A DNA stretch of 61,366 bases, filler included, from Dugesia japonica (taxonomy: Eukaryota): assembly GCA_001938525.1 (NCBI GenBank). It is 6 parts of 6 records of this genome, joined end to end, with 100 filler letters (N's around TTAATTAATTAA, not from the genome) between each part and the next. Parts side by side here need not be neighbours in the genome. Positions count along the whole stretch, not along the records: positions 1 to 11,306 come from MQRL01578509.1; 5 more parts are not named here. One strand, 5' to 3'. Shown here one piece after another: positions 2,819 through 48,883 of this stretch (the stretch's first letter is position 1; the number at the start of each line of letters is the position of its first letter). The notes beneath the pieces were generated by a model. It did not search any database, had not been told where the DNA came from, and saw only the letters and a program-made list of their open reading frames with translations. A program made the translations under genes and the position numbers.

Positions 2819-3306
2819 CAGAGGCGTAGCTAGTGTGTTTGGCGCCCAGGGACAAGATTCATATTTTGCGCCCCCACTGAAAAATTAAGAGTCATCCAAT
2901 GTAACTGCTACTAAAGTAAAGACTAAAAAAGAAACTGATGCAGACGAAACATNNNNNNNNNNNNNNNNNNNNNNNNNNNNNNNNNNNNNNNNNNNNNNNN
3001 NNNNNNNNNNNNNNNNNNNNNNNNNNNNNNNNNNNNNNNNNNTAAGTCCAACAATTATTCTCACAATAATTGTAATTATAAAATTCTATAGACTAGGTTT
3101 AGCAATATTAAATTCAAACAATAAAATTGATAGTTCATAACAAAAAGTTGACTGCAAGAGAGTGACGAACCTTCAATCTTGATAAATATCATATTAAAAC
3201 GATACATAAAATACACAATATAAATATTTCAAACCCCATTTTGGCGCCCCCTGGTCTGGCGCCTTAAGACACTTAACCTCCATGCCCCCTCCTAGCTACG
3301 CTTCTG
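2819..3306. mobile_element. Non-autonomous hAT-type element (MITE)
   Basis: TIRs CAGAGGCGTAGCTAG ... CTAGCTACGCTTCTG. Flanking 8-mers TGTTTTTG / TTTTTTTG match 7/8, consistent with an 8-bp TSD. Confidence 0.75.
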
Positions 3307-4490
3307 TTTTTTTGTGGTTTATGAATACATGAAATTTTCATATACCGCACAAAAACAGGTTTGAGTGTAATTAATTGATTGCTTTATATCTTAAAGTAGA
3401 TGTTTACTTTTTATAATTCAACAAACGACAGTATAAAATAAAAAGCAAACATGATATACTTAGAAAACATACATGTAAAGACATGGAAATTATATCAGCT
3501 ACTTTCTGTTAACAACATTTATTAGTAAAATACGATATTTCTTTCTCCATTCAGTGACGTAAAATACTCGATAGGTGTAAGAAGAAATACAGAAAAAAAA
3601 ATACAGAGAATAATTTTTGAACTATTGATCATAATTTCATTTTCTTTTTTGTATTATATGAAATAACTTGTCGGTTTCATTAAAATATATAGACTTACAA
3701 ATATAACTAAATAAAAAATAAACTTATTTGCTGACTATTGTACAAGTTATGTTCAAATAAATACATAATTTTTAAACCTTTTATACACAAATCATAATAT
3801 GTTTGCTAAAACACAGCAACTTCATACAAAATATGTACTGATTTCGTTAAGTTATATACAAATCTACATAAATATTATATGTAATTTATCAAATTCATAG
3901 AAACATTTACAATTATTTCATATAAATATACTACATTTCGAGAAAATTTGGACCAATTTCATTATCTCATTTAAAATTACATGACAAATATATACAATCT
4001 TTATAATTTTTCATGAGTAATAAATTACATATAAAGTAATGAGACATACACAAACCTTATTACATCATAAAAATATGGTTTTCATTAAAATATGCAGCAA
4101 CTTATTGAGAATATACCAACATTTATGAAGTAATTTATCAGTTTCATTAAAATTATTAAATTTGGTTTTCGTATCCATATCATTTTACATAGTATTGTTT
4201 ATTCTTTCAGTTCCCTGTGATTAAAATAGAACAAATCTTGAAAATCTATTGAATACAACGATAAAAGACAAAAATATACTTGTAAAATTTATTAATCTTC
4301 AAATATGGAATCATTTCCATTAGATAAATTTACAATAGATCATCAATACCATGTCACTTATATGCTCTTGTTGGAAATCCTTTCAACATTGACTTGTTCA
4401 GACTGTACACTAGATGATCAGATAACCACTTTTTCGTCTTTCTTTTAGTTTTCTTTAACTGCTTTCATCAATTTTTCTACGTATCAACAT

Positions 4491-4585
4491 GAAAACTAGT
4501 AATACTAGGGCTTAAAAATTTGAATTTTCAAGGATATCTGAATAACATTACTTCAGATTTCTTTAATTTGCTTGAAAAAATTTAG
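4491..4585 (+). pseudogene. 3' end of Polinton TBP-like gene (5'-truncated)
   Basis: Translates KLVILGLKNLNFQGYLNNITSDFFNLLEKI*. DNA is near-identical to the reverse complement of 36341-36436, the end of the full TBP-like copy. Confidence 0.75.
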
Positions 4586-4695
4586 AAAATTCGCATGTTC
4601 AAATAATTAATATATTACGTTGTGGTTTTTTATTATGTATATATATATATATATATATATATTGTGTTTCGTTATTATTTCTTGTAAAATTAAAA

Positions 4696-4996
4696 ATGAA
4701 TTCATAAAATATTAAAGAAATACAAGAAAAATTCATGAAAACAGGTTGACTATTTATTAATTTGTAATTGTTTTTTAATTTTATATTTAGGAATGCTTGT
4801 TAATATATGTGAAGAACGTAGGATCCTAGACGAAGAAAGACAATTGTTCCTTCCGGAAGTAATGGAAAATCAGTATATGGCAGCTGATTTTTTCGCACCT
4901 GATTGTTTCGGGTGTGCAAAGTTTAATCTTATAATTGCTATGGAGAAGCATCTGGCTGAAATGAATGAATATATTGACCAATTTTGTTACCAATGA
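4696..4996 (+). pseudogene. Cassette gene A (small Cys-containing orphan), two exons
   Basis: ATG at 4696 with a stop at codon 4. 46-nt GT-AG intron at 4745-4790. Exon 2 reads MLVNICEERRILDEERQ...FAPDCFGCAKFNL. Homologue at 35718-36198. Confidence 0.75.
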
Positions 4997-5176
4997 TTTT
5001 TATTTTGTTAAACAAATAAATGTATTGTTATTTAGTTTTATGATTTATTTTTTCTTGATTAGTTTTTTATTTAGTTTTTTCAAATAATGTATTTAAAAAT
5101 TATTATTTAAAGAAAAATAAACAAGATTTATTTCATTAAAAAATAACACCAAGTAAACATTAAGTTCTATAAAAAT

Positions 5177-5611
5177 TTAGATCTGGTTTTCGATGTTTTT
5201 GACTTTCCATATAACTCCTACCGAAATAATTCATTTCTTGAAGTCTTTAATATCCCCTCGAATCATATATTGACTGTCATCTTCATATTGGTTCTCGTAT
5301 CTTTCTTTAAAACTTATACAAATAGCTTCACTGGCTTCAATTTGTCTGCTTAATCTTGCAAACAGAATTTCCAGAATATTCCTATCCTTCTCATGAATTC
5401 CAGATAGAAGAAAACTAAATTTGGATCTTTTTATTGAAACTGGTTTCTAAAATAAAATATTAATTTATAACATTTAATAAAAAAATACTTTGAAGTCATA
5501 GATAATCGGTGTCCTCAAAAAGAACAACTTGTAATTGTGGAAATCAGTAATTTCCCCTAGTTCCACAGTTATTGTTGATACGTTTTCCTTAGTTAGTTGG
5601 TTTTCTTGCAT
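5177..5611 (-). pseudogene. Cassette gene B (~130-aa orphan), two exons
   Basis: MQENQLTKENVSTITVELG...IIYDFK | 42-nt intron 5447-5488 | KPVSIKRS...GIHEKDRNILE...SVGVIWKVKNIENQI*. One internal TGA. Homologues at 33590-34025 and 49370-49806. Confidence 0.8.
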
Positions 5612-5887
5612 TTTTGAAAAAGTGATAACTTTCATGTAAACATTTGCTTATATACTAGTTGTGATACACACATTCTCATTATTTGTGAGTTCCTATTAGT
5701 TAATATTTGCTACAATTGATATGATTTATTAATATTTCTTTTAACTGTTGCAATTAGGTAATGTTTGCTAAAATTGATATGATTCGATAATTATCGTTTT
5801 AATAGTTATGATTGGTTACCAGGTTTATATAAATAGAACCTGTTTTTAAAATTAAATTCACTTTTACAAAAGATTCCTTTTAATACT
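5612..5887. promoter_or_regulatory. Putative bidirectional TATA/Inr promoter between genes B and C
   Basis: TATATAAG on the minus strand (~5647-5654), TATATAAATAG on the plus strand (~5826-5836), TCACTTTT Inr-like motifs ~25-30 nt downstream of each, and an ATTGG box. The layout is conserved at 34026-34230 and 49807-50050. Confidence 0.55.
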
Positions 5888-6437
5888 TTGGTAAATTGTT
5901 TTGAAAATCTCGATCAACATGGAAGAGATCTTGAATATATTGCTAACCAGGAAGTCATTGATAACGGAACCATGCATATTAATGAAGAAGAAATAAAAAA
6001 GCAAACAATCATTCAAGATGAACAAATACCGGATGATGAAAAGATGGAAAATACATTTCATGATGAAGATGAAGATGATTGTTATACTGAAATTGGAGAC
6101 AAAAATTATNNNNNNNNNNNNNNNNNNNNNNNAAAATTATGATGGTAAGAGTTTAATTTATTATTATTTTATTTAATTTTCTTTTTCAGAATTACTGTTG
6201 GAGATATTACATGAAGGGTTTCCAGAATTTCTTCATGAATATATGCTGTTGATGATGAATGAATATTTTAATCATTTATTGCAGACAACAGCAATAGACA
6301 TGAATATATTTTTGAACAATTTCATTATGGAACTTCAATCGGATTTTCCTTTCAATGAAAACAAGAATCATTATAAAATCTTAAAAGAAATAATTTTGAA
6401 AATAACTGAAGAATATGAGAAAGAAATGTTGTATTAA
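5888..6437 (+). CDS. Cassette gene C (acidic N-terminus plus helical C-terminal domain), two exons; start uncertain
   Basis: Acidic exon 1, a 45-nt phase-1 intron at 6145-6189 (GTAAGA...TTTTCAG), and exon 2 ELLLEILHEGFPE...QTTAIDMN...HYKILKEIIL. Three further homologues occur in the window. Confidence 0.72.
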
Positions 6438-6779: not shown

Positions 6780-7905
6780 TATATAGACTTATAAGTTATA
6801 TGTGGAAAGGTTCTATGAATTTATGATTTTTATAAAATAAATTTCACTACTAATATGTTTTTATGAAACATTACATTACTACAAGAAAATTTCATCAACA
6901 ATATGTTTTTTATAGAAAATTGTGACTAGTAGAAATTTGTGACCAGGTTTTTATAGAAAATTACCTAGCTACTATTTTTTTATGAAAACATTTCTGTTTT
7001 TATCATCTTGTAAAGATAAGTTTTAATTTGAATATTTTATCATTTAAATATCACAAAAACTCCCCTCTTTNNTTATTTTTAATAGTTATATTTTATCATG
7101 TAAATATCACATCATTCCCTCTTTGATTATTTTTAATAGTTATATCTTATCATGTTAATTAAATTTAAATTTTAGACTGCCCAATTTCTTGCAATAATAT
7201 CAAGACTGACAAATATCTTGTAATAATATCAAGACTTCAAAAAAAATCAATACTGACCAATCTATTGCAAAAATATCAAGACTGACCCGTATACTAAAAA
7301 ATATAAAGACTACCTCAATGTTTTTAAATAATGAAATAAAAAATTCTTTCACAATCGACATACAAAATCTCCTCCATCACATTACCTTTCAAGCAACCCA
7401 TCAACCACCAAAGTACAACAACCCCCTACAAGCATACACCCTCCCAAAAATCCCTGCACGAAAACTTATACGCCTGTGACAGTGCGCTACTACACTTCTA
7501 GGACAAACCATCCATCCCACCTCATAAGTTTTTTATACAATATATAGACCGAATTTTCGTCCAACCACAACCAAATATTAAAAACAACCAAAAAGTTATT
7601 TCCAAGATCTCCACACCTCCCTCGAGTCCAAATTCACTCTTTCACACACACAGACTTTCACACAAACTCAACTTGACCTACTTTAAATTAACCCCCTTAA
7701 CAACCCAAGCACACACAAATTTTAAAAATTTAAAATACACACATACAACCAGGATAAAAAAAGTGATCCGATCAAAAAAAAAGTGATCCCAAAAATCTTT
7801 AAAAAAAAGTATCACAATCGTAAGCAGTTGTCCACCCCCCCTCACCCCCGGTGGGAAGAGAGGTAAGAAAAATAAATTGTGACAGTCCGCTACTATCTAC
7901 CTACT
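6780..7905. mobile_element. Polinton subterminal repeats and right terminus
   Basis: Short degenerate tandem repeats. 7330-7810 matches the reverse complement of ~31500-32050. A C-tract precedes the end CCGCTACTATCTACCTACT (5'-AGTAG on the other strand). Confidence 0.65.
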
Positions 7906-8314
7906 AATTTCATAAGAATATACTTCTGAAACTTACTTGCTTTATACACAAAGTTTTAAAATGTATACTAAATCATGCAAAATATGTACTATATTCATAN
8001 NNNNNNNNNNNNNNNNNNNNNNNNNNNNNNNNNNNNNAATAAAACTAAATAAATCGATACTAGTCCTTAAATCAATATACAGATAGTTTTTAATTCTCTA
8101 TTTAATTATATCAAGAAATTTATAGCTGTAATGGAAATACTTGTCTGTATAGGTTTTTGATAATCATTGATTTTAATATTGATTTGTCGATTTTATAAAT
8201 ATCTTAGAAATATCAGTCATCACATTATCTATCCAACAATACCTTGCTTTACTCAGTCGGATAAGAATTACAAAAACCTTAGGACAATTTTACATAAAAT
8301 ATTACATAATTAAT

Positions 8315-11406: not shown

Positions 11407-11469
11407 CATAATTTTTCTTAATAATTAATTTGGTTGATTTAAACAAATTTCCACATATTTTTTGATTTT

Positions 11470-11891
11470 TTTGATAATTTTATGATGATCCAATGTTCCA
11501 CTTTTCCACTGGCAAAAACATTGAGACATAATGGCTTGTATTTGTTGACTCGTAATTATGGAAATAATTCTGGTTCGAACCATCAATCTAATACACTGCT
11601 CCATCTATATAAATTTACTCCCCGTCCAAGATCACATGTTACAGTAATTGATTGAATACCATCTATTTGGATATTGATATTTTTGCAAGTAATTGGTTTA
11701 TACGTGATTGGTTTTTTGCATCCCATGATTTGACATTTTCTCTATTCAAAAATAATTATTGAATAATCTTTTATTTTCTTTACACACTGTCAGGGTTTCT
11801 TCCAGGTATTTACTTGGAGATCTGAAGGTGAATCAATTAGATGATAAATTAATATTTGATAACATTGTTTGACAAATGAGCAATATTCATG
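11470..11891 (-). pseudogene. Polinton-encoded TBP-like protein
   Basis: Pieces across frameshifts: LSNINLSS, DYSIIIF..KCQIMGCKKP, IQSITVTCDLG.VNLY, WFEPELFP*LRVNKYKPLCLNVFASGKV. These match the TBP second-repeat motifs YEPELFP and IFxSGK. Confidence 0.78.
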
Positions 11892-11926
11892 AGCTTATAT
11901 ACTTTTTTTGTATAAAAAACCATTTC

Positions 11927-12564
11927 TATGGTTTTTTTAAATTGTTGCTACAAAACAACGCAGTTTTTCAAATAGTCGACCTTAATGGAAGCGTCAAAAC
12001 ATTATTTGTTTGCAAATTATACAAAGAAAACTGTTTCGGACAAAGTTTAAACATATTTATTGGAATCAAAGTGGTGGATATGAAACCTGATTGACTAATG
12101 GTGAATTTTGCAAGTTGAGAAAGATAACGATAATTAATAGATTCGATGATGCTTGGTTAAAGAGATTAAATACTGGGGATTTTATTGTAATCGATGACTT
12201 GTTTGAAGAGGCAAATAAGCAGGCTGGTTTTAAGAATCTTTTTACAAAGACTGCTCGACATGGTAATGTAACTGTCATCTTTATCACCCAAAGTCTTTTC
12301 CATCAAGGTGGTATGCATCGTATATGTACTCTAAATGTTCATTATTTGGTTTTATTCAAAAATCCACGAGATCAAACTGTGGTTGATTATGTTTCTCGTC
12401 AAGCATTTCCTCACAAAAAAGGATTTTTATCTGATGCATTTCGTGATGTTAAGGCACATGGATATTTATTTATTGATTTTTTCCAACAATGTACTGATGA
12501 TGAAAGAGTAAAAACCGATATATTCGATTCGGAAGAAATAACAGTTTACAAACCATTGCTATGA
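11927..12564 (+). pseudogene. Polinton packaging ATPase (A32/FtsK-like)
   Basis: Degenerate Walker A (IVDLNGSVKT), Walker B IVIDD, ARHGNVTVIFITQ, YLVLFKNPRD, HGYLFIDF. Confidence 0.9.
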
Positions 12565-13199: not shown

Positions 13200-14203
13200 A
13201 TGGAAAAACTATGGTTTAATCCAAAGGACCCGGTTGAATACACCGGTATTTCAAAGCTTGCAAATGCTTCAAATGTTTCGGTAAAAGAGATGAAGAAATT
13301 ATTAGGCAGCCAATTGGCGTATAGTTTAAATAGATCAATGTGAAAACGGTTTCCAACACTGAAATATATTGTTGCTGGGGTTAATAGACTATAGCAAATG
13401 GATTTGATAGAAATGATTCCATATGCAAGCTTAAGTAATGATTATTGATATATTTTGACATGTGTTGATGTATTTAATCGATTTGCACATGCAGTTCTAG
13501 TAAAACGGAAATCTGGTAAAGATATTTTGTTGGCTTTGACGGCAATGTTCAAAGATGCTCACCCAAAAGCTATTTAAACCGATTTGGGTAAAGAGTTTTA
13601 CAATACTCAGGTCAAATCATTATTGATACAATATAGTATACTGCACTATTCAGTATTTTTTCAGTACAAGACTGCTCTAGTTGAGCGATTTAATCCAACT
13701 CTACGCACACGATTAAAGAAGTTCTTTACCAAAAAGGTAGCAAAAAATGGAAACATGTTTTAATAAAAAATTTATGCATACAACCATTCTGAGCATAGAG
13801 TTATTGGAGGAAGAGGAAAGAAACCAGTTGATGTTACAGATGATGATTCCATCAATAAAAAACTAAAACCAAAATATAAAATTTGACAACATGTACGGAT
13901 TTCCAGAATTAGTACTACGGCATTCATCAAAAACTTTGAAAATAATTGGAGTGACGAAGTCTTTAAATCTCAGAAATCAACACGAGATAGTCACCAATCA
14001 TGCATACAATACGTGATGAAGATGATAATATTATTCAAGGCAAATTTTATGAGCAGGCTATACAAGTGTTATTGAAAACCCCAAGTTTAAATAGAATCAA
14101 ATCAATTCTCAAAACCAAAGATCAAGAAGAATATAAACAATATCTAGTTGAATGGCATGGGTGTTTAAAGCTTACGTGGATTCAAGCATCTCAAATCCAA
14201 TAA
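13200..14203 (+). pseudogene. Polinton rve integrase with C-terminal chromodomain
   Basis: QMDL, YILTCVDVFNRF, TDLGKEFYN, VERFN, NWSDEVF, IQGKFYEQ, QYLVEWHG. Multiple stops. Confidence 0.92.
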
Positions 14204-16679: not shown

Positions 16680-18875
16680 TAACCACCTAATTATATGACC
16701 CACATGCAATGACTTGTTCTAAATTTCTTTCATCTATTTGCGATAGAACTATCCCGATGACATCAAAATTCGCATCTGTATCTAATACAAACATCTTTTT
16801 TATATCTGGAAAGCTGAATATCGGTGTTTTTGTTAATGCCTCTTTCATCTCATTAAAAGTTTTATCACAAATTTTAGACTACACAAGTTTTGTATTATTA
16901 CTTCCACGTGGCTCGTTCAAGCTTCTAGCTTTCTTTGAGTAATTATTGATAAACCGTCTATAGTAATTGCATATTCTCAAAAAGCTTCTCAAGTTCTTCA
17001 CACATTTAGATCTTCCGAAAATTTTCATCACTTCAATTTTTGTTGGATCAGTTCGAACTTTATTCTTGTCTATGACATGTCCTAAAAATTTGACTTCTGC
17101 TCACAATAAATGGCATTTTCCCGGATTAATTCGCAATCCAGATTCTTGAGTTCTTTTAAAAACTTTGTCTAAACTTTTATAGTGCTGCTCTAAATTTTCT
17201 GAAAATATTACTATATCATCCAAGTATACCATCTTTTCTCTCGATCTTCATAATACTTTTGTAATTAATTCTTGAAACGTTCCAGGTGCTGCAGCTATAC
17301 CAAAAGGCATTTTTGTGAAATAATACTGTCCATTTTTCGTAAAAAATGCTTTAAGTCTTTGTTTAACGGAACTTAGTATGCATTACCCAAATCAATAGTA
17401 CTAAAATATCTTGAACCACTCAAATTGTCTAATATTTCCTCTACATTGGGCATCTGAAATGCCTGTCTTTCTGTGATTGCATTCAGTTTTCTAAAATCAA
17501 GACATAATCTTTCCTTTCTGTTCTCCAAATACATATTAATGGAGTGTTCCATTGTGAATTAAACTTCACAATAATGCCATTGTCAAACAAATTCATTATA
17601 GCTTCATCTATCCTATTCTCTAAAGGCATTGGTTGTCTCCTTGAATTCGTATTTATTAGTTCTCCATTTGTGATTATTTTATGTTTTTCCATTGTTGTTC
17701 TGTCGATAGTCTAGTTTTCTGACATGAATATACCTTTATGAATCATTATAACTTTCTCTAAATTCTCATTTGGCTTGTTAATCAATATTTTTATTGCTCT
17801 CTGTACTCTCTCTATATTCGCTGTATTGTATCCATACTTTAATTCTATATTACAAAGATACATTTCATTATCCTCACATTTAATCTCACTCAGCCGTTAA
17901 AATCCAAACTTTTTGTAATTCTATTCCTTCTATTAAATCAGGATATATCAGTTTCACCACAATGTACTTAACTGTTTAGTTTTTATTCCTGAATTTCACT
18001 TCTACCTTTAACGTACCTACGATTTCGAGCGGACTTTTATTAACACAGCATAAATTGTTTTCACATTTTAATATATTGACTTTACTCAATATATACAAAA
18101 TTTTCAAACTCATCACATTAACTCTTGCTCCAGTGTCTAACAAGCAATCAACTTTTACGCCCTGTATTTCAACCATTATACTTACTCTACCTTGCATCTT
18201 GTTATAACTTATATCTTGTCACTTTATCTCTTCTATCAACAAAATTTCACAGTCATCTTCTCCATTTATACCATTGATAATTTCCGGTTAGCTTCTAATC
18301 AATTCTTCCTTTTCAAACTTGTGAACCTTTTCTTTTACATCATTGTACTCTTCTAAACGTTTATCTTCATTTTTTATTTATATAACAATTTATACTACTT
18401 TTACTATAATTAACAATACTGCCATTTTTTGGGAAACTTAGTTCAATGCTCCGAAAATCTCAACTTCGGTCAGATCTTGGCCATTTGGGTATTCATCTTG
18501 ATAAATATTTGATCATTCATTACAATAGTGGCTTTTGTTTTATCTACACGCACAATCTTTACCATAACTTAATCTTAACGTTACTTTCATTCCTCTTTGT
18601 GTAATTATTCGTATGTTTTGAATAATATCTTTTTTGCCATTTCCGAATTCTTTTCTGGTCTGTTTATTTTTGTTTTGGTAACTAAACTGTTTTTTTCATA
18701 TTTGTGTGATAAGTCCTCTGTGTGGTGGCCTTTCTTGTTGCATCTTGAACAACTAACTTTGGTACAGTCTCTTCTTAAGTATTGTTCAGATACACAAGCA
18801 TAACACTTACTTTTTCTTTCTTTAAAATTTCTGTTTACATGAACTATTTTGTTACAGGTCCAACACGTAGTTTTT
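16680..18875 (-). mobile_element. Decayed Ty3/gypsy gag-pol (Zn knuckle, protease, RT, RNase H start)
   Basis: CSRCNKKGH knuckle, CLLDTGA protease, MPFGIAAAPGTFQ, VYLDDIVIFS, VKFLGHVI, FVLDTDANFDVIG. Confidence 0.9.
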
Positions 18876-18922
18876 GTACATTAACATAACATTAAAATTT
18901 AACGAAGCAAATTTTTTTTTAC

Positions 18923-27179: not shown

Positions 27180-28634
27180 GATTTTGTATGCTTATTCAGT
27201 TATTCTGTTTATCAATATTTTTATTGCTCTCTGTACTCTCTCTTCATCCGTTGTACTGTGTCCATATTTTGCTTCTATATTACAAAGATACTTTTCATTG
27301 TCCTCTCATTTAGTCTCTCTCAGCTGTTGGAATCCAAACTGTTTCTGTAATTCTATTCCTCCTATTAGATCTGGATGTATCTGTTTCACGACTATGAATT
27401 TAACTGGTTCGCTTTTCTCGAATTTTTCTTCTACTTTTATCGTACCTACTATTTCGAGGTGACTATTATTGGCACATCTTAAATTGTCTTAAATTTTTAA
27501 TATATTGACTTTTATTTATATCATTATTTATACTACTTATTCTATAATTAACAATACTGCAATTTTTTGGGATACTTAATTCAACGCTTCGACAATCTCG
27601 ACTTCGGTCAGAGCTTCGCCATTTGGGTATTCATCTTGATAAATATTTGAACCTTCATTACAATAGTGACCTCTGTCTTCTCTACATACACAATCTTTTC
27701 CATTTTCTCAATTGAATTAACGTGACTTCATTCTTCTTGTGTAGTTATTCGTATTGTTCGAATAATATCTTTGGTTGTCATTTCCGAATACATTTCTGGT
27801 CTGTTCACTTTTATTCTGATAACTAAACTGCCTGATTATATTTGTGTAACAGTCCTCTGTGTGGTGACCTTTCTTGCTGCATCTTGAACAACTAACTTTG
27901 GCACAGCCTCTTCTCAAGTGTTTTTCAGATCAACAAGCATAACACTTTTTTTTCTTTCTTGACAATTTCTGCTTACATGAACTTTTTTGTTACAAGTCCA
28001 ACACGTTATTTCTCGTCTTTCATTGTTTCTGTTCTGTTACATTCCTTTATTTCGACTCCTGTTGAAATTTTTTTGTTCCAGGATTTCGGCGAACTGCATC
28101 TCTGTAGTTACGAACTACATTTATTTCTTCAGTTTTTACTTCGTCTTTTATGTCTTCCNNNNNNNNNNNNNNNNNNNNNNNNNNNNNNNNNNNNNNNNNN
28201 NNNNNNNNNNNNNNNNNNNNNNNNNNNNNNNNNNNNNNNNNNNNNNNNNNNNNNNNNNNNNNNNNNNNNNNNNNNNNNNNNNNNNNNNNNNNNATTAACC
28301 TTTCTACCAATCTTTCAATCTTCTTTTTATAGATATTTATATGCTCTCTATTCCTTCGATAATTTTGAACTTCCTCCATATCTTTAATCATTGTTGATGG
28401 CCGAAAAAAAACCTTTCTGAATTTTTCTTCAAATCTCAATGATTCGTCTTCATTTTCATAGATTTCACGCAGTTCTTTATCTATGAAAGATACTCTCCTC
28501 TGGTCTTTCTTTGTTCTAGTTATATCAAAAAATTTCGTGGTCTTCAAAATAAAATTTTCGACATCATCGCCCAATTGGAAAATTCCAGAGTTCATGGCTT
28601 CTTTTAGCAAATCCAATGATGCGTTGGGCGCCAT
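27180..28634 (-). mobile_element. gypsy gag/protease fragment, same family as 16680-18875
   Basis: gag ORF 28047-28634 and a CSRCSKKGHHTEDC knuckle. DNA aligns with 17790-18870. Confidence 0.85.
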
Positions 28635-30117
28635 GTTAGTTAAATTCAAACCCTGACAACTCTTCATAAATTTGTATTTATTATTACAAGTGTTTTTGAC
28701 TAAAATATAATAATGAAGAATAATTCATAATATTGAAACAAATAATCTGAGAAATCTTTCAATAAAATATTTTAAAAATATCGATTTTTAATTTTATGAA
28801 ATATTTCATTTTACATAAAAATTTCATAAAATATCTTACAAATATCGATTTTTGAATTTTTGAAATATTCTACTTTACATAATAATAAATTAAAATTTTA
28901 TTCAATAATTGTAAAGCTTCTTTAGTTTAAAATCAGTTTTCAGAGTATTATTTTGTTTTAATTGTTGAATTTTTTAAATTGGTAATAAAGAATAATCTGT
29001 TGCGTTTAACAAATTAAAGTTTTGTTACAAATATTCAAAATTAAAATATAAATTAGATATTTAAAATTATACCTTATTTTTTGATCAAATAGTTAAAATA
29101 AGAATAAAAAACAGTTTCTAATAAAAAGACGTGTTTAATTTTCATTAAATTTTATTTTAAAAAAATATAGTAAAAATTTATTAATTAATCAAATAATTTT
29201 TGATGAATAATTGAACAAATTTCTAGTTTTAGTTCTATCATATTTCCATAATTATCGGCATAAATCGTCTCATCAACACCGACGTTCATCTGAGATATTT
29301 TTATAAATGAACTAAAGAAACATTGAAATTAATTTATTAGCGCTATCACAGTAATTAAGTCCTAGTTATATTTTATTTTTTCCTATTTGTATTACGTAAA
29401 AAATTTTATTAAATTATGTTTTAGCAAATTTTAATTTTTACGTCTCCATGTATATCAGATACGACGTTATATAATAATAATACGAAATTTTTGTGTATTT
29501 TTATAACTCAAATTTTTATCAGAATAGTTCCAGTCTGTTGAAATTTCAATTAGATTTTCTTATATATCATTTTCATCTTTAAAAGTTGAGAGTAATGTTT
29601 TAACCCTTTTTATTTTAAGAGAATTCAAAATATTTTAATAATTACTGCCAGAAACTCGTTAAAGTCATGTTAATTTTTAAGACTAAAAAAATATATAAAA
29701 CTAAAATTTTGATTGGTCCAGTAGTTCTAATGTTAAATTTCTGAGTACTCATGGAAAATCCTGCCTCTAAACCGGTGTTCTACTTTCTTTTAACCAGGTG
29801 TTTCGTATCCCGAAATCGTGGGATTAAAAACTTTATAACGGTTATTGGAAGCTTAATTCTAATAAAAATATTGCGAAAGATCGGTTATTATCATTAATGA
29901 AAATTTAAATACATCGACAAGAAACTTTGCCAAATATCTGCCAATATAGTAGTCAACAATCAGAAGTACACAGTGATTTAAGAACAAATTTTACGTTATA
30001 AAAAAGGGCAATTCTTATCAGGTAAAAATTTTGAAAACTGTTTAATCTGATCAAAGCGTTTGTAGAACATAGTCAAACATCTTGATCATATTGTGAACAT
30101 TTTTTTATATAGATAAA

Positions 30118-30217: not shown

Positions 30218-33200
30218 TATATATATAATTATATTCATTCTAGTCATATTAAACCTCCTTGGTATTTCCATGATTATCATAGGTATTTTTATATTTTAAT
30301 ATGTATAAAACAAATTTTACTAATTTATCATTTAAAATATTGTTACATAAATATTTCATTTATTTATTTATTGTTTAAAATAATTATTTATTATTTATTT
30401 TTTTAAAAATAATATTTAAATAAGCTTTAATTGTTGATTGGAATAAACTTCATTAATTTTTAGATCTGGTTAGTAAATATTTGTAGAATAATAAATCAAT
30501 GTATAATCCATTTATATACAATGGATTCATAAAATCCATTTCTATTTTTTCGTATTTAATAAGAATAAAAATCATTTTTGAAATTTTCTATCTTATTTGA
30601 CGTTAGCAAACAAGTTCATTGAAACCAGAAAATACACTTCTCAAAAGGTTTTTCAAAAATTATTTGCATTTAATAGTTCTGTTACAAACCATATTTTATT
30701 TTGCATTAAATTTGATAGTACACAGTGTGACAATTAAGTTTTAAGACTGGGTCTGTAAAATCAAAAGAAAGCAAAATATAAAAAATTTATTAATTTCTTT
30801 TTCAAAATAATCCCATCCGGTGTCAATGTATCTGTTACACTGATTAAATAAAGATTGAAATGCCTGTTTCAGATTATGTTGATATTAGGTAGATACGAGC
30901 GCACTGGAACAGCAACCCCCCAGCCGTCGACTGTTTTACTAATTTCAGTGTTTTGACTGTTTTAGTATGGAATAATTTTGATTGGTCATTACAAAGACGT
31001 GAAAAATCTTTTCGAATTCGGGTTGGAACGGTCGAATGTTTACTCGGGAAGGTCGAAAATGCAAATTTTCGGTACAAAGTTTTTCAGCCAAATTTTATCG
31101 TGTGATTTCAAATTTGTTATTGATCGTCTTAGAATTGAAAGCATGGGAACACCCCCCTCCACCCAAGGGAAAATTAGTTTTTTTGGAAGATTTTTTTTTA
31201 TTTTTTCTTGTTTAAATGAGGTTAAATTATTTATTTTGTTTAAATGAAGTAAGATTATTGATTTTTTGTTTAAATTAAGTCAAAGTAATTATTTTTGTTT
31301 AAATTGAATGAAATTATTGATTTTTTATTTAAATTAACGAAATTAGTGTTTCTTTGTTTAAATTAATCGAAATTAAATGACTGTTCGTTTAAATTTAATG
31401 AAATGAATAATTTTTCAGTTTCTTCATGGAAAAGTTATTGAAAAGCTTGTTTCGTTTAATTAAACAAAAGTTATCAAATGTAATTTTATCCTCGGAAACA
31501 CATTACGCTTGAGCTGTGTTTTTTGTCATGATTTTTGTGCTCTTTTTTTTCTATTTTTTTCGAAAATTTTTGATCGGATAAAATTTTATTTTGATTGTAT
31601 CAGTTTTTTTGATCCTGAGTGTGTTTTTTTAAATTTTGTGTGTGTTTGGGTTGCTAAGGTGATTTTTAAAAAGAAGGTCAAGTTGAGTTTGTGTGTATGG
31701 TTGTGTGTGTAAGAGTGGAAAAACGAGGAGGAGGAGTTGGAGATCTTGGAACTAATTTTTTTGTAGTTTTAAGGATTTGGTTGTGGTTTGACAAAAATTT
31801 GGTCTATATATTGTCTAAAGGACTTATGAGTTTGGATGGATGGTTTTCGCTTCAAGGGTATTGACACACGCGAACAGTCGTATGAGTTATCGTGGGGTGT
31901 TTTTAGCGAAGCTGTAGGGTTGTATGTGGTTGATGGAATTTGTTTGTTGATGGGTTGTTGGAGAGGTAATGTGATGGTGAAGATTTTGGTTGTCGAATGT
32001 GCTTTGATTTTTATTTTAAAGGCTTGGATTCAATTGGTTTATTTTGTAAGTAGTATAAGTGTGTTAAAAGATTTTTTTGTGAGGTAGAGGTTGGTATGTT
32101 TGGAAAGAAAATTAATTATCAGATGTTTTAAGATTTATTTGAAATTTTTTTGTCACGTGGTTATGACGTCATAATTTTTTGAAGTCTTTACTTTGGTTAA
32201 AAATGCTGTATTTTGCTTAAATTGATGAGTTTAATGAAAGTAATGTTATTTTTGAGTATTTGATGTATTTTTGTTTAATTTTTTGGTATTTTTGAACAGG
32301 GAAGAGTTGTTTTTTTTAATATTTTTGAACGGGGAAGAGGGGAGTCAGATATTTTTGAAAACTTTTTTGGCGGGAAATTAAAAAAAATATTTTTGTTGGG
32401 AAATTCAAGAATTAAATATTTTGGTTGGAAAATTAACATTTTTCATTTCAATGGGGGGAAATCTTTTTAATATAATTAAATTTAATTATATTAAACTAAA
32501 TTAAAATAAAATAAATTAAATATTGAATGAGGGGCCACTATATTTAACATGGGGAGCCTCTATATTTAGCATATTATGGGACAGACTTGATATTTTTCAA
32601 AGTATGAGACAGTCTAAAATTCAAAGGCTCGTGATTTTCAGTGTATGTGTGTCGCAGCTTTAACGCTTCTGATTTACATGATAAAAATATAACTATTAAA
32701 AAAATCATAGAGTCTTTGTGATATTTGCATAATAAAAAATAACTTTTATTAAAATATTCTTTGAGACATTTACAAGATAAAAGTATATCTATCAAAAAAC
32801 TTCAAAGAGGGGAGTATTTTTAATATTTACATGTTAAAATATATCTATCAAAAAACTTTAAAGAAGGGAGTCTTTGTGATATTTTCATGATAAAAATATA
32901 TCTATCAAAAAACCTCAAATGGGAGAGTCTTTGTGATATTTACATGATACAATATTCAAATTAAAACTTTTCTTTACAAAATGATAAAAACATTGAACGT
33001 TTCTCATAAAAAAAAACATATAGGTCATGCAATTTTTCTAAAAAATAATATTACCGATTTCATTTTTAATAGAAAATCTCAATACCGATGTAATTTTTAA
33101 AAAAGAATCTCATCACCGATGCACCTTTTAATAAAAAATCTCATTAGCGATGCGATTTTCCGTTAGAAAACATAAAACATATTGGTGATGNNNNNNNNNN

Positions 33201-33589
33201 NNNNNNNNNNNNTTGGTGATACAATTTATACATAAATAAACATATTACTAGTGACAATATTTCTATAAAAAACATATAAGTCATGCAATGTGTCTATAAA
33301 CAAACATATATCCAGTGACAATATTTCTATAAAAAATATATTAGTCATATAATATTTCTATAAAAACATATTGGTGATGCAGGTTTTCTATAATAAACAC
33401 ATATGTACTGACAATTTTCTTATTATTTATTATTTGTGTAGTTACCATGTATTAATTACATAGTAACTGTGTATTAAAGGTTTCATGAGTGTATTATTTG
33501 CTATTAAAATTAAAAAGACTTTGTTTTCATAAAGATTTATTTCAGTATATAAAAAAACATGACACTAAGCAAACATTAAGTAAACAAAT

Positions 33590-34025
33590 TTAGATCTTTT
33601 TTGTAATATTTTTAACTTTCCATATAACTCCTACCGAATTAATGGACTTCATGAAACCTTTAATCTCCACTTGAATTATATATTGGTTGTTCTCATCATA
33701 TTGGTTTTCGTCTCTTTCTTTATAACCTATATAAATAGCTTCATAGACTTCAATTCGTCTGCTTAATCTAGCAAACCGACCTTCCAGTATATTTCTATCC
33801 TTCTCATGAATTCAAAATAGAAACAGACTAAATTTAAATCTTTTTATTGAAACTGGTTTCTAAAATAAAATATTAATTTATAATGAAATATAAAATAATT
33901 ACTTTGAAGTTATAAATAATTAGAGTCTTCAAAAAGAACAACTTGTATTTGAGGAAATCTGTAATTTTTCCAAGTTCCACAGTTATTGTTGAGACGTTTT
34001 CCTTAGTGAGTTGATTTTCTTGCAT
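33590..34025 (-). pseudogene. Cassette gene B, copy 2
   Basis: MQENQLTKENVSTITVELGK...YNFK | 43-nt intron 33860-33902 | KPVSIKR...QVEIKGFMKSINSVGVIWKVKNITKKI*. One internal TGA. Confidence 0.8.
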
Positions 34026-34264
34026 TTTTGAATTGTAAAAGTGATTAACGTTATGTAAACCTTTGCTTATATACTAGTTGCGGTACACGCATACTCATTA
34101 TTTTTGAGTTTCAATTTGTTAATGTTTGCCAAAATTTATATGATTTGTTAATATTTATTTTAACAGTTATGATTGGTTACCGTGTTTATATAAATAGGAC
34201 TCTTTTTTAAAATAAATTCACTTTTTACTTTTTTAAATGAAAAATTTTTGAAAAATCTTTTCAA

Positions 34265-34756
34265 TGAGAAAATGGAATTAAAAATGATACTAACCAAGAA
34301 GAAATAGAAAATATCATTGCAACCATCAATATTAATGAAGAACAAACAGTAATTCAAGATGAAAAGATGAAATATGCATACCCTGACGAGGAAGACGATG
34401 GTTTTTGGTTTGAATATTTAGATAAAAGATATGAACATTATTATGGTAAGATTTTATTATGTTAATAATAATAACTCTTATGGTAAGAGTTTAATTTATC
34501 ACTAATTTTTTTAATTTTCCTTTTAGATTTAGCCAAACAGATATTGAATAAAAGGTTCCCAGAATATTATAATGACTGTGAACTGTTGACTACCATGGAA
34601 TATTTCACTCATATCTTGCGAACAACTGGAATTGATATGGATNNNNNNNNNNNNNNNNNNNNNNNNNNNNNNNGATTTAATTTCCCGGCAAATGTAAACA
34701 AGACTCATTATGAAATTTTAAAAGAAAATATTTTGAGGATGGCTGAAGCATTTTAA
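34265..34756 (+). pseudogene. Cassette gene C, copy 2
   Basis: Acidic exon 1, intron 34446-34526 (donor duplicated at 34483), exon 2 DLAKQILNKRFPE...RTTGIDMD...HYEILKENIL. Confidence 0.72.
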
Positions 34757-35717
34757 AAGTAATTTAACAATGTGCTAAAAATAAATGTTTTACTTGATAA
34801 TTATTTTGCCTTATTTACTTTTTTAAATTAATAAAGTTCATTTTATTAGTGAAAGGTTTTTTATTAGTAAAATTATAAGTGGCACTTATTGAAAATAGTT
34901 TTTTATTATGAATGCAATATGTATGCAGTTCAGCAAAAAATACCTACTATATAATTATAAAAGGTAATTACACAAATAATAAACTCATAAACCTAATATT
35001 ATATGGTTGCTAACTCAATAAACCATGGTAACTATGATTTTTAATCTTAATTATATAAATAAACCCTATAATACAAGCGACCTATGCAAATAATACTCTC
35101 ATAAACCATATATTTCATGGTTGTTATGTAAATAATACAAACATAAACCTTATAATACATGGTTACTATGTAAATAATACACTTATTAACAATATATAGT
35201 CATGACAACATTTACTTATAAGTTTTATAAAGGTCTTTATGTATTTTTACAGTAATGTTCAGTAATATATATGAGAGATTGTCACTCTCACAAATCTTAT
35301 AATATAAATTGCTATGTAAATAATACAAGGTACCTATGCAAATAAAATCACTCATAAACCATATACACTCATAAACCCTATATATATCAAAATATTTACT
35401 TATAAGTCTTTTTTATATAGACATATTAGTTATATATTACAAGGTTCCATGAATTTATGATTTTTATGAAAAAAAGTCTGTTTTTTTAATCATTTTGTAT
35501 AGAAATATTCCCAGCTAATATTTTTTCATGAAAAATTGTCACTACTAATATGTTTTTTATAGAAGAAATTGCATCGCTAAAATGTTTTCTTTATAGAAAA
35601 ATTGACAATCTTTATTTTATTTAAATTCTAATTTTAAAATACATTATTTTTAAAAGAAAAACTAAATAAAATAAAACTATATCAAAAAAGACTCAATTAT
35701 AATACATTTATTTTTAT

Positions 35718-36198
35718 TTACCTATAACAAAAATAATTTGAATAATTGCGAAGATCATTCTGATGGTTTTCCATAGCTACCATCAGATTAAACTTAGCAC
35801 ATCCGAAACAATCAGGTGCACAAAAATCAGCTGTCATATAGTTAGTTATCACTACTTCCGGAAGAAAAGGTTGTCTTTCCTCGTCCAGGATCCCACGTTC
35901 TTCGCATAGATCAACCAGCATTCTTTACTTTCTTTAACGGATTTACCTCATTCTTTAAATAATTAGAATTTACAGGATCATGTTCATTACCTGGTCCTTT
36001 CTTTATTTGTAGAGGCGATTGCATTTTTAAAATAAGTATTTAGATATGCAATATTAACGGCATCTTAATCTTTCTATATCTAAACCAGCATTCCTAAATT
36101 AAATTTATTAATAAAATTTAAAAATTAATAAAAATCAAACCTTTCTTGCTAAACACCTCTTCGGTTTTCTTTAGATTCTTAATAATTGATGAAGCCAT
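35718..36198 (-). pseudogene. Cassette gene A, copy 2 (interrupted by a 159-bp insertion)
   Basis: Exon 1 MASSIIKNLKKTEEVFSKK, intron 36094-36140, exon 2 GMLVDLCEERGILDEERQPFLPEV...FCAPDCFGCAKFNL. Confidence 0.75.
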
Positions 36199-36340
36199 TT
36201 TAAAATTACAAGACAATAATAATGAAATACAATAAAACCACAAAGTTATATATTCATTATTTGAAATTTAAATATCTAAATTTAAATTTATATTTTTTAT
36301 ATTTGAACTGTAAATGTTTTGCATCCGTGTTACGAATTTT

Positions 36341-36815
36341 CTAAATTTATTTAATCAAATTGATTAAATCTGAAGTAATGTTATTCAGATATCCTTGAAA
36401 ATACAAATTTTAAGTCCTAGTATTACTAGTTTTCCTGTTGAGAACACATTTACCCATAAAGAGTCATATTTTATAAGTCTTAGTGCAGGAAATAACTCTG
36501 GTTTGAACCAACAGTTGACTATTCTTACTAATTTATACAGGTTTATTAAAACTCTTATATTTACGACAATAAATAGCTATTGTAATTGTAAATATTTTGT
36601 ATTATAAGATTCAAATCANGANGTTCCAAAGGTTTCGTACAACCCATTATTCTACATTTTCCTGATCTAAAGTACATAATTGTAAATTTATCACTTTTGA
36701 CTTTAAATTAACATAGTTTGCCTGTTGGAAAACTTATTTTCTTTGTTATTTCTTGAGTCAGTTTACTTCTGCAATTATTATTGGTTATCATAATTAATGA
36801 ATTAAATAGGACCAT
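36341..36815 (-). pseudogene. Polinton TBP-like protein, near full length (~155-160 codons)
   Basis: MVLFNSLIMITNNNCR...FTIMYFRSGKCRIMGC...INLYKL...CWFKPELFPALRLIKYDSLWVNVFSTGKLVILGLK: two TBP-like repeats with a few stops. Confidence 0.82.
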
Positions 36816-39661
36816 TTGTGTTATGATAGATTTAATTTAATTGATTCGTTAAANNNNNNNNNNNNNNNNNNNNNNNNNNNNNNNNNNNNNNNNNNNNNNN
36901 NNNNNNNNNNNNNNNNNNNNNNNNNNNNNNNAATACCCTCATAAGCCTTATATTACACAGTTATTAGAAAATAATACATAGTTGTTATGTAAATAATACA
37001 CTCATTAAACCTATATTACGTAGTTGCTAAGTAAATATACAAATATCACATTCCTAAACCCTATATTACAGGGTGACTATATAAAAATACCTTCATAAGC
37101 CTTATATTAGACGTTTGCTATGTAAATAATTCCCTCATAAGTCTTATATTTCATAAAACTTAAATTTCATGGTTGCTATGTACATAAAACACTCTTAAGT
37201 CTTATATTTCATAAAACTTATGTTTCATGGTTGCTATGTGCATAATACACTCATAATCCTTTTAATTCTTATTATATACGGTTGCATGTAAATAATACAA
37301 TGTAAATATACAAATATTACACTCATATATGTTTTTTTATAAAAAAGGTTCAATGTTTTTATCATATTGTAAAGAAAAGTTTTGGTTATTTTTAATAGCT
37401 ATATTTTTATCGTGTAAATATCGCAAAGACTCCCCTTACTAAAGTTTTTTGAGAGATATATTTTATCATGTAAATATCATAAAAACTCCCCTCTTTGAAG
37501 TTTTTTGATAGATATATTTTTATTAATGCAACTCAGAAGCATTAAAGCTGCAACACACATACACTAAAAATAACGTGCCTGGGAATTTTTTAAATAAATG
37601 CAATAGGTATGCAACTCAGTTGCAACTCAGATGCAACACACATACATTAAAAATCACAAGCCTATGAAATTTTATTGATATTTTAAATAAATGCAATATG
37701 TATGCAGCTCAGATGCAACTCAGATGCAACAGACATACACTGAAAATCACGAGCCTNNNNNNNNNNNNNNNNNNNNNNNNNNNNNNNNNNTCAAGCCTGT
37801 CCCACATCATGCTAAATATAGAGGCTACCCATGTTAAATATAGTGGCTCCCCATTCAAAATTTCAAGACTGCTCAAAACTATGCAAAATAACAAGACTTA
37901 CCATACCATGCACAAATATATAGACTGCCAATACCATGTAAAAGACGAAGACTGCCCATACCATGTAAAAGACGAAGACTGCCCGATATCTTGTATTAAT
38001 ATCTTACAAAATATCAAGACTGCCCGATATCTTGTAATAATATCTTACAAAATAGTTTGTATTATTTAAATAGTTACTATTAGATTATTGCTCCATTTCA
38101 GTGGTTTGAGTAGTTTTAAAATTTTTCAGGCACGTGTTGGTGTGTTGCAATTGTATTACATACTTATTGCATTTATAAAAATTTCCAGGCATGTGTTACT
38201 ATATTGCATTCGCATTGCATACCTATTGCATTTATTTTTGGAGAGAAATTTAAAAAATATTATTTTTGGCGAAAACAATAAAAAATTAATTTTTGGCGGG
38301 GGAAAATTTTAATTTAATTAGACTTAATTAAATTTAATTAAATCTCTTTAGAAAAGACATTATATTTATGTATGAGATGAGACAGTGTTGATATTTTGCA
38401 TGAGCTGGGTGGAGTCTCTATATTTTGTAAGATATTATTACAAAATATCGGACAGTCTTGATATTTTACATGGGGAGGCACTATATTTAAAATGAGGAGT
38501 TTCTATATTTAACGTGGGGCAGTCTTGATATTCTGAATGAAGAGTCTCTATATTTCGCATTGGATGGGGCAGATTTGATATTTTCCAAGGCATCGAGCAG
38601 TCTAAAATTCATAGGCATGAGATTTTCATTGTATGTGTGTAATGTAAGAATAATTATATAGTAGGTATTCCTCTTATTAATTACATCAGAAATTAATTAA
38701 TCTGATTTAAATAAAAATTCATAAAATTAATTTCATTAAATTTGAATTGAACATTTATTATATATAAACAATTTTTACATTTGGCTTGATAATTTTCCCT
38801 TCAATATTTAATAAATACAAATTGTTTTACTCTTCAAATCAATCAATAATAATTGTTATTTATTTTAGAAATCAACATTCATGGACGGAGATTATTTTGT
38901 AATACACGGCCGAGGGATTCAAGTATTCTTACAAGCAATTTTGAATTATTCATTTAATATCTAGTGATATAATTAAGAATCAATTTTAATTAACAAAATA
39001 TATAAAACTTAAAGTGTTTTTTTCAGAAAAAACATGAATATAAACAAAATATTCTTAAATGTTTATTATATTTTATTGATAATTTTTTATTTTAATATTA
39101 CATCACTCACTTCTCAAATGAGTGAGCATATAGTATAAAGCCCAGATGAAGTTAGACTATACAAATCCATTCTGCTAGCTCGTATCGAGTTACTTCGATC
39201 ACTTTACCGTCTTCATTACTCCATGTCACGAGACTTGGACCTTCTTTAACAAATTACAATGGCTTTCTTAATTCGTGTTTGACCTTTATAAATTTGTATT
39301 TATCATTGTGGTTTGTAGTGAATATTTTGTGACGTCGCTCTTTTGAAATTATTTTGAAACATTTCCTTGTTTTCAAAAGTACGATGTGCGAGCTTCAAAA
39401 TCAGATGAGTATAATAAACTAAAGTTTTCACACAACTATATTTATCTGACTCCAAACAGTTCATTTACGTTGCTGTTATTAGCCTTATTACTTTTGTAGT
39501 GGGGGTTTAATTCAGTAAATAATTATATGATAAATATTAAAAATAAAACAATATAAAACCCTTGAAGATTTATAAAATAAAAAGCAATAACGTTATAAAC
39601 TCAAAAAATAATTATTTATCTTTTTAAATAAATAATTGACAACCATTTTTTAAAATATTTA

Positions 39662-43574: not shown

Positions 43575-43639
43575 ATTAAAACCTAAATTTTGATCAAAGC
43601 TTTTATATTAAATGAATATCCATCTAATTTATAATTACT

Positions 43640-44500
43640 TATTGCCTTTTCTCCTCCTCTTTTGGAATGTTGTATATTTAATTTGTTGATATAACTTAAC
43701 TATTCAAGCCAATGTAAAGATTTGGAGGAATAAACGTCATTAAAATCGGATAGTCTTAGAATTCCTATTGTATTATTATTTATTATAGACATAAACGTTT
43801 TGGCACATACTTGCGCAATAGTAATATATTGAAATGGGTCTAAATTCAATAAATTACCATTAGGCATCTTTATATTCATAAAAACATCTTTGTATATTAA
43901 ACATCCTTTAGTTAATATCATTACATCTGTTAAAGAATAATAAAATAATTCATTTTGAAAATTAAATATATCATTATTATTTATTCTCTCATCATACCAA
44001 GCTTTTAATTTTTCTTTATTAGTTAATTGATCGGTCTCTATCTTTTGCATTATTACTCATTGTTTCATATCTATAATAGTATAAAGCCGGAAAAGCACCG
44101 ATATAGTTTTGATTCGCTGTTGTATTTTCAAAATGAGATAATTCCCCTTTTGTTCCTTTAAAGCCGAATGTTTCGGGAAATGCTTTTAAAGCACATAAAG
44201 TAAAACATAATGAGCCAATGAATCTAATATTAAAATTTTTAACACGAATGTGTATAATTTTATTTCATCTAAAGGTAATTTATTTTTAATTAACCAACCT
44301 AATATTGGTTGATTATCGTATCCTTTGGAATAATATGCTATAAATGTATAATCTTTAAAAGTCATGCTAATAAAAAATTTGCAGAAAGTATCTTTTAAGG
44401 ATATTGAATCATTTATAATTATTTGGTTTATTGCTACACATTTAGCCATTATATTATTAACATTTAATTCATCTAATTTCAAATTCATTTCTTCTCTCGT
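43640..44500 (-). pseudogene. Protein-primed DNA polymerase B, exonuclease region (type 1)
   Basis: FIAYYSKGYD, ILDSL, FPETFGFKGTKG, NQNYIG, FNFQNELFYYSLTDVMILTKGC, DPFQYITIAQVC, SLHWLE. Confidence 0.85.
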
Positions 44501-44639
44501 TTCATCGTTAGAAGCTTCGGTAATTATTTTAAATATAGTTACAATATTTAATTGAAATTTCTAAAATACTTTTCTTAGAGAATCATACAGAATTTACAAA
44601 TAACTTTTCTTATCATGTACCGGAGTAAATAAAAACCAA

Positions 44640-45070
44640 CTATTGTATCAGATGAAATCGGATGGTCTGCTGGATTCAAGCAATTATCTAAACGATAACC
44701 CACTCTATTCCAGCAATGTGGCCAATAAAATTTGATTGTTTAAACATGACGGAGCAGGTGAATACTTTACTGAATGGGTATTCCTAAAGCCGAAATGTTA
44801 TAAGTTGAAGATAAAGGATTCTTGTACGATAATGAAGGTAAAGGAAATAAGAATAAAAAAAACAGATATCAATCATCAGAACTATTTAAATGCATATATT
44901 AAAGATGAAGACAATTAAGAAGAACAAAACAAGGTTATGCAGACTAGCTTTCGTTTGATAAGTCACCAAGTTTACACATTAGAGAGTAACAAACGCGTTT
45001 TATCATGCCTGGATGATAAGCGCATTTAGAGTGAAAGATATACTACTATGACCTATAGTAATTATAAAAC
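44640..45070 (+). pseudogene. pPolB C-terminus (type 2)
   Basis: LLDSSNY...HPLYS, LFKHD, EWVFLKPKCY, NKRVLSCLDDKR. Homologous to 53540-53920. Confidence 0.8.
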
Positions 45071-46417: not shown

Positions 46418-47020
46418 ATAGTTGTTAATTCATTAACAAAAACAATTATTTTATCAGAATTCAAAGTTTATTTCAGAAATCAAGTGATTTACTTAGTTGC
46501 TCTAATTTTGTTATGTATAATTCATCTTTCAACTGTATAGTATGATAATTTACTTTAGAATAAGTTATTTTAATTTTTACATTTTCTATTAAAAAATCAT
46601 CATTAAATGCTGAATATACAATATAAGTAAATCTAGTTTTCTCTTTGTTAGTCTTATATGGGTATCCAAATGTATATGCGATTTTTTCATCTTCAAATAT
46701 GATAACATATGGATATTCACAAGCAATATTTATCATCCTCCTATATGAAAAGATTGTCATTGTAATCGAATTTCAAGAATTTTCCTTTGTGATTAATAGT
46801 AACAGTCATTTCATTTAATATACTTTTTGATTACATGTATTGAATTTTAGAATTGCTATATAATAGAAATTTTTGATATACAAAGGTAAAACCTTACAAT
46901 GCTACTTCCCACTGACCATCCCTATAAATTGGATTTTGAAGGTCAACAATGAATTTATTAGCATTATTATCCAGATGAATAAGTGAACAGCTATTATTCG
47001 GTAAAAGTGTATAGAAATTA
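46418..47020 (-). pseudogene. Polinton penton, N-terminal part
   Basis: NFYTLLPNNSCSLIHLDNNANKFIVDLQNP...QWEVAL, homologous to 14203-14350. Confidence 0.75.
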
Positions 47021-47029
47021 CTTGATTTC

Positions 47030-47560: not shown

Positions 47561-47624
47561 TTAGGCGATGATTGCAATCTACACATGGTTTATTTAAATA
47601 TTGCTATAAATCAGTAATTGTATA

Positions 47625-47944: not shown

Positions 47945-48229
47945 TTTTATTTCAATAAAACATACATACCAATAGATTTTTTATAATGATATCCATTTTT
48001 CGTTCATTATTTTTAGTTTCTTTTCGCTACTTTTTGCAAGTTTTCCAATTATTTAATTGCTTTTTCTTATTTGGATATGTTTTCTTATGCGATTGATTCT
48101 TATGTGATTTTTTCTTACAGGATTGTTTCATCTTTCTCTTAACAGCAGGCTTTTTTCGTTCTTTAAGATCAACATCAACCACAATTTTCTTAAATTTTGC
48201 CACATTATAAAATATTAAGAAAATTAACT

Positions 48230-48850: not shown

Positions 48851-48883
48851 AAAATTTATTAATAATTCAGTAAATTAATTTCA

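Follow-up and report, generated by a model that had tools for sequence, protein, structure and literature searches.

The question raised by this locus is whether three small genes, here called A, B and C, which recur next to a TBP-like gene near the ends of Polinton elements of Dugesia japonica, form a genuine and spliced part of these elements and, if so, what they may do for them. Our analysis considered a window of 61,366 nucleotides with a GC content of ~25%, consisting of six scaffolds joined by N-linkers and interrupted by many inner gaps, in which no complete element is visible. Polinton pieces or element ends were found on five of the six scaffolds. It should be noted that decay was seen in every gene and that all copies in the window are broken relics. 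With this in mind, the genes appear to be a real and conserved accessory module of a Polinton family, and one that is probably spliced. ORF-based annotation overlooks accessory genes of this kind, as their single exons span only 16–90 codons.

The Polinton family itself is recognized by its ends and core genes. Six element ends sharing a ..TATCT..CTACT-type motif were identified (at 7905, 9318, 30886, 43574, 52054 and 55733). Both ends are never visible on one element, and hence TIR pairing and the 6-bp target duplication are unreadable. The integrase (13302-13454) matched Pfam rve with 38.7 bits, above the cut-off. The pPolB (52993-53292), which lies on a different scaffold from copies 1 and 2 of A, B and C, matched DNA_pol_B_2 with 25.9 bits, against a cut-off of 25.8, and is in turn matched in tblastx by pPolB-like pieces that share a scaffold with copy 3. 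For the ATPase, the Pox_A32 match (E 0.036) was below the cut-off and the Walker motifs were recognized by eye, and the two ATPase copies are 59% identical over 99 aa. The best-preserved TBP-like gene (11451-11930, minus strand), overlooked in the preliminary description of this DNA, matched Pfam TBP (PF00352) over 11451-11801 with 25.6 bits (cut-off of 22.9). Its top PDB matches are TBP chains, the best having an E of 0.003, and it forms a head-to-head pair with an ATPase gene, a layout that is also found in copy 3. When 15 frames from the core stretches were compared to Pfam, neither a major capsid protein nor a protease was matched, although the scaffolds are fragmentary, so that this absence says little. 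Just past the element end at 43574, two opposed pPolB-like pieces (43620-45050) join near 44550, pointing to a nested or rearranged insertion at this position.

The preliminary description had given the cassette order as TBP-like gene, A, B on the opposite strand and C, an order that is complete in copy 1 only. The left edge of what survives of this copy is an integrase N-terminal remnant at 4273-4425 (minus strand; ~4200-4480 by eye), identified by tblastx (E 1e-13), where 51 aa match 13302-13454 with 47% identity. The remnant abuts the tail, of ~35 codons, of a TBP-like gene (4484-4600, plus strand; 81% over 26 aa to the TBP-like tail of copy 2). Copy 1 is thus linked to a core gene, and an internal deletion between integrase and TBP tail seems to have taken place. 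A1 (4696-4996, plus strand) comprises exons at 4696-4744 and 4791-4996, with a stop within exon 1. B1 (5177-5611, minus strand) comprises exons at 5611-5489 and 5446-5177, with one stop in exon 2 and a TATA box at 5654. C1 (5826-6437, plus strand) has its TATA box at 5826, its start at 5919 and its second exon at 6190-6437; the frame breaks soon after the start and an N gap lies at 6110-6132. Sub-terminal repeat arrays and the element end (..CTACTATCTACCTACT) follow at 6829-7905 (plus strand), with 7350-7808 being 76% identical to 32001-31554. The flanks of copy 1, at 3780-3840 and 7941-7990, are alike (70%, 61 nt), as if the element had been inserted into a host repeat.

In copy 2, the element end and sub-terminal repeats (30886-33200, minus strand) are followed by B2 (34025-33590, minus strand), C2 (34264-34756, plus strand), A2 (36198-35720, minus strand) and a TBP-like gene (36815-36330, minus strand), for which the Pfam TBP match (E 0.006) is below the cut-off. 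The block of B2, C2 and spacer (33590-34756) is inverted relative to the TBP-like gene and A2, and each breakpoint is marked by inverted repeat units; this flip could reflect recombination or misassembly. At the start of exon 2, A2 contains 170 additional bases (36093-35923, minus strand) between two 11-bp direct repeats, so that either A2 gained an insertion or A1 underwent a repeat-mediated deletion. Copy 3 (48235-50602) consists of the ATPase (minus strand), the N-terminal half of a TBP-like gene (plus strand), B3 (49806-49390, minus strand) and C3 (50087-50602, plus strand), with the element end at 52054 and with A absent. As had been described, B and C share one contig with ATPase and TBP, in a gap-free stretch (46418-50747) which also carries further core-like genes. 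Every copy of A, B and C in the window adjoins a core-gene remnant, a TBP-like gene or an element end, and profile searches of the six frames of the window revealed no copy outside Polinton stretches. The placement of the genes within the Polinton was thus borne out, and the window gave no sign of a host family located mainly away from such elements.

As to what the genes encode, all three proteins are short (85–170 aa), and the GC content of the genes (0.24–0.31) is like that of the core genes. A is an acidic protein of ~85 aa with one conserved CxxC, B (~130 aa) is the most conserved of the three, and in C the first exon is acidic and the second probably helical. Profile searches, as suggested earlier, were run and assigned no family or homologue, and in Pfam, PHROGs and NCBIfam no match of A, B or C exceeded the cut-off. 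In a word-indexed protein search, no homologue was found for B, for the TBP-like piece from copy 3 or, among longer proteins, for the alignment of C exon 2, a blank that is weak because even the TBP-like piece drew one. Locus searches likewise yielded no confirmed relative of B (viral, metagenome) or of the ATPase, TBP-like or integrase genes. As the same searches fail for these core genes, the collections do not cover this family and the designation of A, B and C as orphans is provisional. Predicted folds had a mean pLDDT of 31 for B and of 56, with four helices, for C exon 2, and Foldseek returned nothing under E 3 for the latter; these models carry no evidential weight. A by-eye resemblance of B to a TBP-like half domain was rejected, as no TBP appeared among PDB matches to E 10 and hhalign gave a probability of 0.1.

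Comparison of the copies indicates that these are, or were, protein-coding genes. For B1 and B3 (111 codons), pS was 0.72 and pN/pS 0.32 (interval 0.23–0.46), with shifted-frame controls of 1.08 and 1.16 and with values of 0.26 and 0.37 for the separate exons. The corresponding ratios were 0.48 (0.28–0.83) for exon 2 of A1 and A2 and 0.47 (0.29–0.80) for C1 and C3, while for C1 and C2 (0.60, 0.37–1.02) and for exon 2 of B1 and B2 (0.64, 0.34–1.32), the interval spans 1. Purifying selection on this basis is clear for B and weaker for A and C. Selection thus acted on the genes as the subfamilies diverged, and neutral decay was added afterwards.

Such genes might nevertheless be captured host cargo, namely host genes with their own promoters and introns and with no part in the element cycle, an explanation that we consider rather unlikely. 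According to the accessible text of a study of nematode Mavericks (bioRxiv 10.1101/2022.07.12.499685), an intronless core is accompanied there by a region of 2-5 kb beside the terminal repeat with intron-bearing genes, and the cargo (wasp proteases, krma kinases) is GC-rich, poorly conserved, made up of large enzymes and thought to be host-derived. The site of the present genes beside the terminal repeat, together with an intronless core, matches the nematode case, the block is rearranged or partly absent between copies, and the intron size is near that of a host intron. However, no host-type domain or homologue was found for B or C (weak evidence, as it comes from the word-indexed search), B is constrained across copies with synonymous sites near saturation, and no copy lies away from Polinton sequence within the window. 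The GC content is core-like here, where that of nematode-type cargo is high. An ancient host origin would, in addition, be compatible with the genes having come to serve the element later. Were the genes mere captured cargo, the finding would be less important, as the nematode precedent would only be repeated in another host.

A second alternative, which we find improbable, is that the cassette is now propagated chiefly in a non-autonomous form (ends plus TBP-A-B-C), in which case its recurrence would reflect copying of a deleted element and not conservation of a module in the full one. Copy 1 lost everything between the integrase and the TBP tail, and in copy 2 (30886-38640), a possible non-autonomous element, TBP is the sole core gene and inverted sub-terminal repeats flank TBP-A-C-B on both sides. 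The right arm of copy 2, however, lies past an N gap and is missing its outer end, copy 3 presents B and C in gap-free sequence with the ATPase and further core-like genes, and selection on B implies function during the divergence of the copies.

Each gene of the module carries one short intron-like segment. As previously described, A, found twice, contains a phase-1 GT..AG segment (4745-4790, 46 nt, in A1 and 36140-36094, 47 nt, in A2), while B, found three times, contains a phase-0 segment at FK|KPV (5488-5447, 42 nt, in B1; 33902-33860, 43 nt, in B2; and 49683-49643, 41 nt, in B3). C, for which four copies had been claimed, contains a phase-1 segment in C1 (6145-6189, 45 nt, where the phase is read from only the 10 nt that follow the N gap), C2 (34483-34526, 44 nt) and C3 (50323-50367, 45 nt). 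In C2, 29 nt of the donor region (34441-34506) occur twice at a distance of 37 nt, such that use of the alternative donor at 34446 would yield an intron of 81 nt instead of 44 nt. All segments start with GT and end with YAG after a pyrimidine-rich 3' end, the GT and AG are kept in 8/8 copies, and codon position and phase are constant within each family. The interior GC content of the segments is 0.02–0.15, against 0.24–0.38 for the exons. Nucleotide identity of introns and exons is uninformative in this respect, since the AT-rich introns align at 80–89%. The most telling case is B, where the lengths of 41, 42 and 43 nt cover all residues modulo 3 and yet exon 1 measures 123 nt from the ATG and exon 2 opens with KPV in 3/3 copies, with excision of the segment restoring the exon frame in each. 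The sizes of 41–47 nt are close to the 39 nt of the host GMC intron (2517-2479), as had been noted; this intron belongs to a GMC oxidoreductase fragment (2280-2720; Pfam GMC_oxred_N, 90 bits).

When all genes were passed through one filter (GT..YAG, 38–49 nt, GC≤0.16), matches were obtained for 9/9 accessory coding strands and 0/9 accessory antisense strands, as compared to 2/17 core segments and 1/17 core antisense strands. As both core-segment matches are purine-rich and unconvincing, core genes show no obvious introns, again in agreement with the preliminary description. Counted by family, the contrast is 4/4 accessory to 0–2/7 core (Fisher p of 0.003–0.06), with related copies being non-independent trials. 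A stricter scan of the whole window gave 14 matches, of which only 6 are at known sites and ~8 are unrelated GT..AG AT-rich pieces, and single-copy candidates are thus unreliable alone.

Transcription signals were considered next to the same genes. We defined a promoter pair as a TATA box followed 24–34 nt on by TCA(G/T/C)T(C/T), an initiator pattern that derives from insect promoters and was broadened after the sites had been seen. In the window, 16 matches at 11 distinct sites were found, 6 of these being the starts of B1-3 and C1-3, while 0/8 core or TBP starts examined matched. It should be considered that the six matches represent two homologous families only and that A and the gene at 54425 fail the pattern; the TATA box of A2, 54 nt upstream, did not satisfy the strict pair, and A1 has a (TA)n run at this position. 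In B and C, the promoter lies only upstream of exon 1. AATAAA occurs ≤50 nt from the stop in 8/8 copies examined (B3 not among them), a weak signal in AT-rich DNA. Of the spliced, early-type module that was originally proposed, the part describing protein-coding genes with intron anatomy is thus supported by the frame test, pN/pS, TATA/initiator pairs and AATAAA.

RNA reads added less on splicing. Raw RNA runs with the same species label were aligned to copy 1 (65, 356 and 92 reads, and 531 contigs from a run of uncertain kind) and to copy 2 (626, 573, 746 and 92 reads, three of these four runs belonging to one study), with 6–26% of each run being read. Nearly all reads come from other paralogues and are mostly <90% alike, so that the power of these alignments was low. 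The junction reads that had been anticipated at 4745-4790, 5447-5488 and 6145-6189 were absent from the 13 joints listed on copy 1, all of which came from one contig set and none of which is GT..AG. On copy 2, the 15 of 20 joints listed all fall within the repeat spacer, with none at a predicted intron. Reads of run X16 also cover the B1 intron at 5485 (8 reads) and position 6141 (12 reads), the latter implying that reads enter the C1 intron. As the reads are diverged and first exons span 16–58 codons, junctions are hard to see, and splicing is neither shown nor excluded by these data. Assuming the usual stranded-library convention, the sense fraction was 0.84–0.99 for A2 exon 2 and 0.62–1.0 for C2 exon 2 (4/4 runs each), mixed for B2 (0.46–0.85), and 0.65–0.79 for TBP in the three runs of one study, but reversed (0.24) in run X20. 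Read-through from host transcripts could be a source of such reads. Over the integrase remnant (4281-4442), run X16 has reads on both strands, with antisense in excess. That the segments are not introns but AT-rich insertions or decayed linkers, and that the two halves of each gene are individual small ORFs or a single decayed ORF without splicing, is very improbable. In favor of this reading, no junction read was listed, some reads enter the segments and ~8 unrelated pieces pass the stricter filter. Against it stand a codon position and phase that are constant in every copy, lengths covering all residues modulo 3, GT and AG in 8/8 copies, restriction to the coding strand and, for B and C, a promoter ahead of exon 1 alone.

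The gene that had been taken for the fourth C, following pPolB at 52731-55733, does bear introns but is not detectably a C. This acidic orphan gene (54425-55038, plus strand), with two phase-1 introns (54573-54618 and 54751-54792), sits between pPolB and the element end at 55733, and its relation to C is not supported, with a score of 4.2 bits against the C1-3 exon-2 profile where the best shuffled sequence reached 11.4. Intron-like segments were also seen in small ORFs of Polinton stretches at 46221-46182 (minus strand, 40 nt) and 53986-54033 (plus strand, 48 nt), each in single copy; these are possibly further spliced accessory genes, though within chance for single copies.

Considering these observations together, we favor, with reasonable confidence, a reading of A, B and C as host-style polymerase II units, spliced once and kept near the element end. 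Each gene would be read by host RNA polymerase II as a stand-alone unit, its single short intron would be removed by the host spliceosome, and the module may have been retained through subfamily divergence because it is useful to the element. As only host machinery would be needed, A, B and C might be expressed first from an integrated copy, and the small, mostly acidic proteins might influence transcription of the host or of the element. Such an early, regulatory role is a tentative suggestion drawn from their anatomy. The intronless core genes may be read later, perhaps with the TBP-like protein of the element. The full two-tier program, like that of a nuclear DNA virus, in which terminal, spliced, TATA-driven A, B, C and relatives come early and the TBP-like factor then activates intronless replication and virion genes, seems unlikely. 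Conserved host-style units beside a TBP-like gene of the element offer a concrete, testable model of Polinton temporal control.

Adenovirus early units, to which the cassette had been likened, are spliced, TATA-driven and close to the genome ends. The introns here are, in contrast, single and tiny, with no evidence of alternative splicing, and no sequence or motif link to adenovirus was found. A nearer published parallel is provided by nematode Mavericks, with their cargo region of intron-bearing genes. Both combine an intronless core with intron-bearing genes near the element end, an arrangement that is already published and of which the TBP-A-B-C cassette is a variant. The present cassette differs in being AT-rich, in comprising three orphans of 85–170 aa in an arrangement common to diverged copies, and in adjoining a TBP-like gene and not directly the integrase. 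In vertebrate Mavericks, according to the accessible part of PMC8097293, which also relays the no-intron statement of the 2006 Polinton paper, core modules lie between accessory regions and ends are of the AG..CT type; the elements described here share the former and may resemble them in the latter.

The 'Oncoid' genes of adintoviruses, in the part of PMC8502044 available to us (section 3.2), are similar in being small accessory ORFs and in view of the conserved CxxC of A. They differ from the present genes, in which LxCxE and CR1 were absent from 13 exon translations (C1 exon 1 in the wrong frame) and CxxC was found in A only. In the same main text, as far as available, spliceosomal introns are unmentioned, and TBP-like genes are confined to the legends of figures on viruses from hosts other than animals. 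Dinoflagellate Maverick-Polinton-like elements also contain spliceosomal introns, although there, according to the accessible text of PMC11957031, recent and repeated introner insertions occurred mostly post-integration, while here each gene has an old intron at a fixed site and only accessory genes are concerned. The consulted parts of further reports (bioRxiv 2023.08.22.554363, PMC11071296, 2026.10.13.758929, PMC12220804, PMC11131425 and 2025.02.07.637071) make no mention of accessory genes with spliceosomal introns. The cassette is not described in the openly accessible main texts searched; genome maps in adintovirus or nematode supplements could hold similar genes.

Two further kinds of mobile element were noted in the window. 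Decayed LTR-retrotransposon gag/pol-like pieces were recognized by eye at 16700-18900, 27200-28720 and 58350-58960, two of them being 83–85% identical, and a short MITE-like element with inverted ends (GGCGTAGCTAG..CTAGCTACGC) lies across an N gap at 2820-3310.
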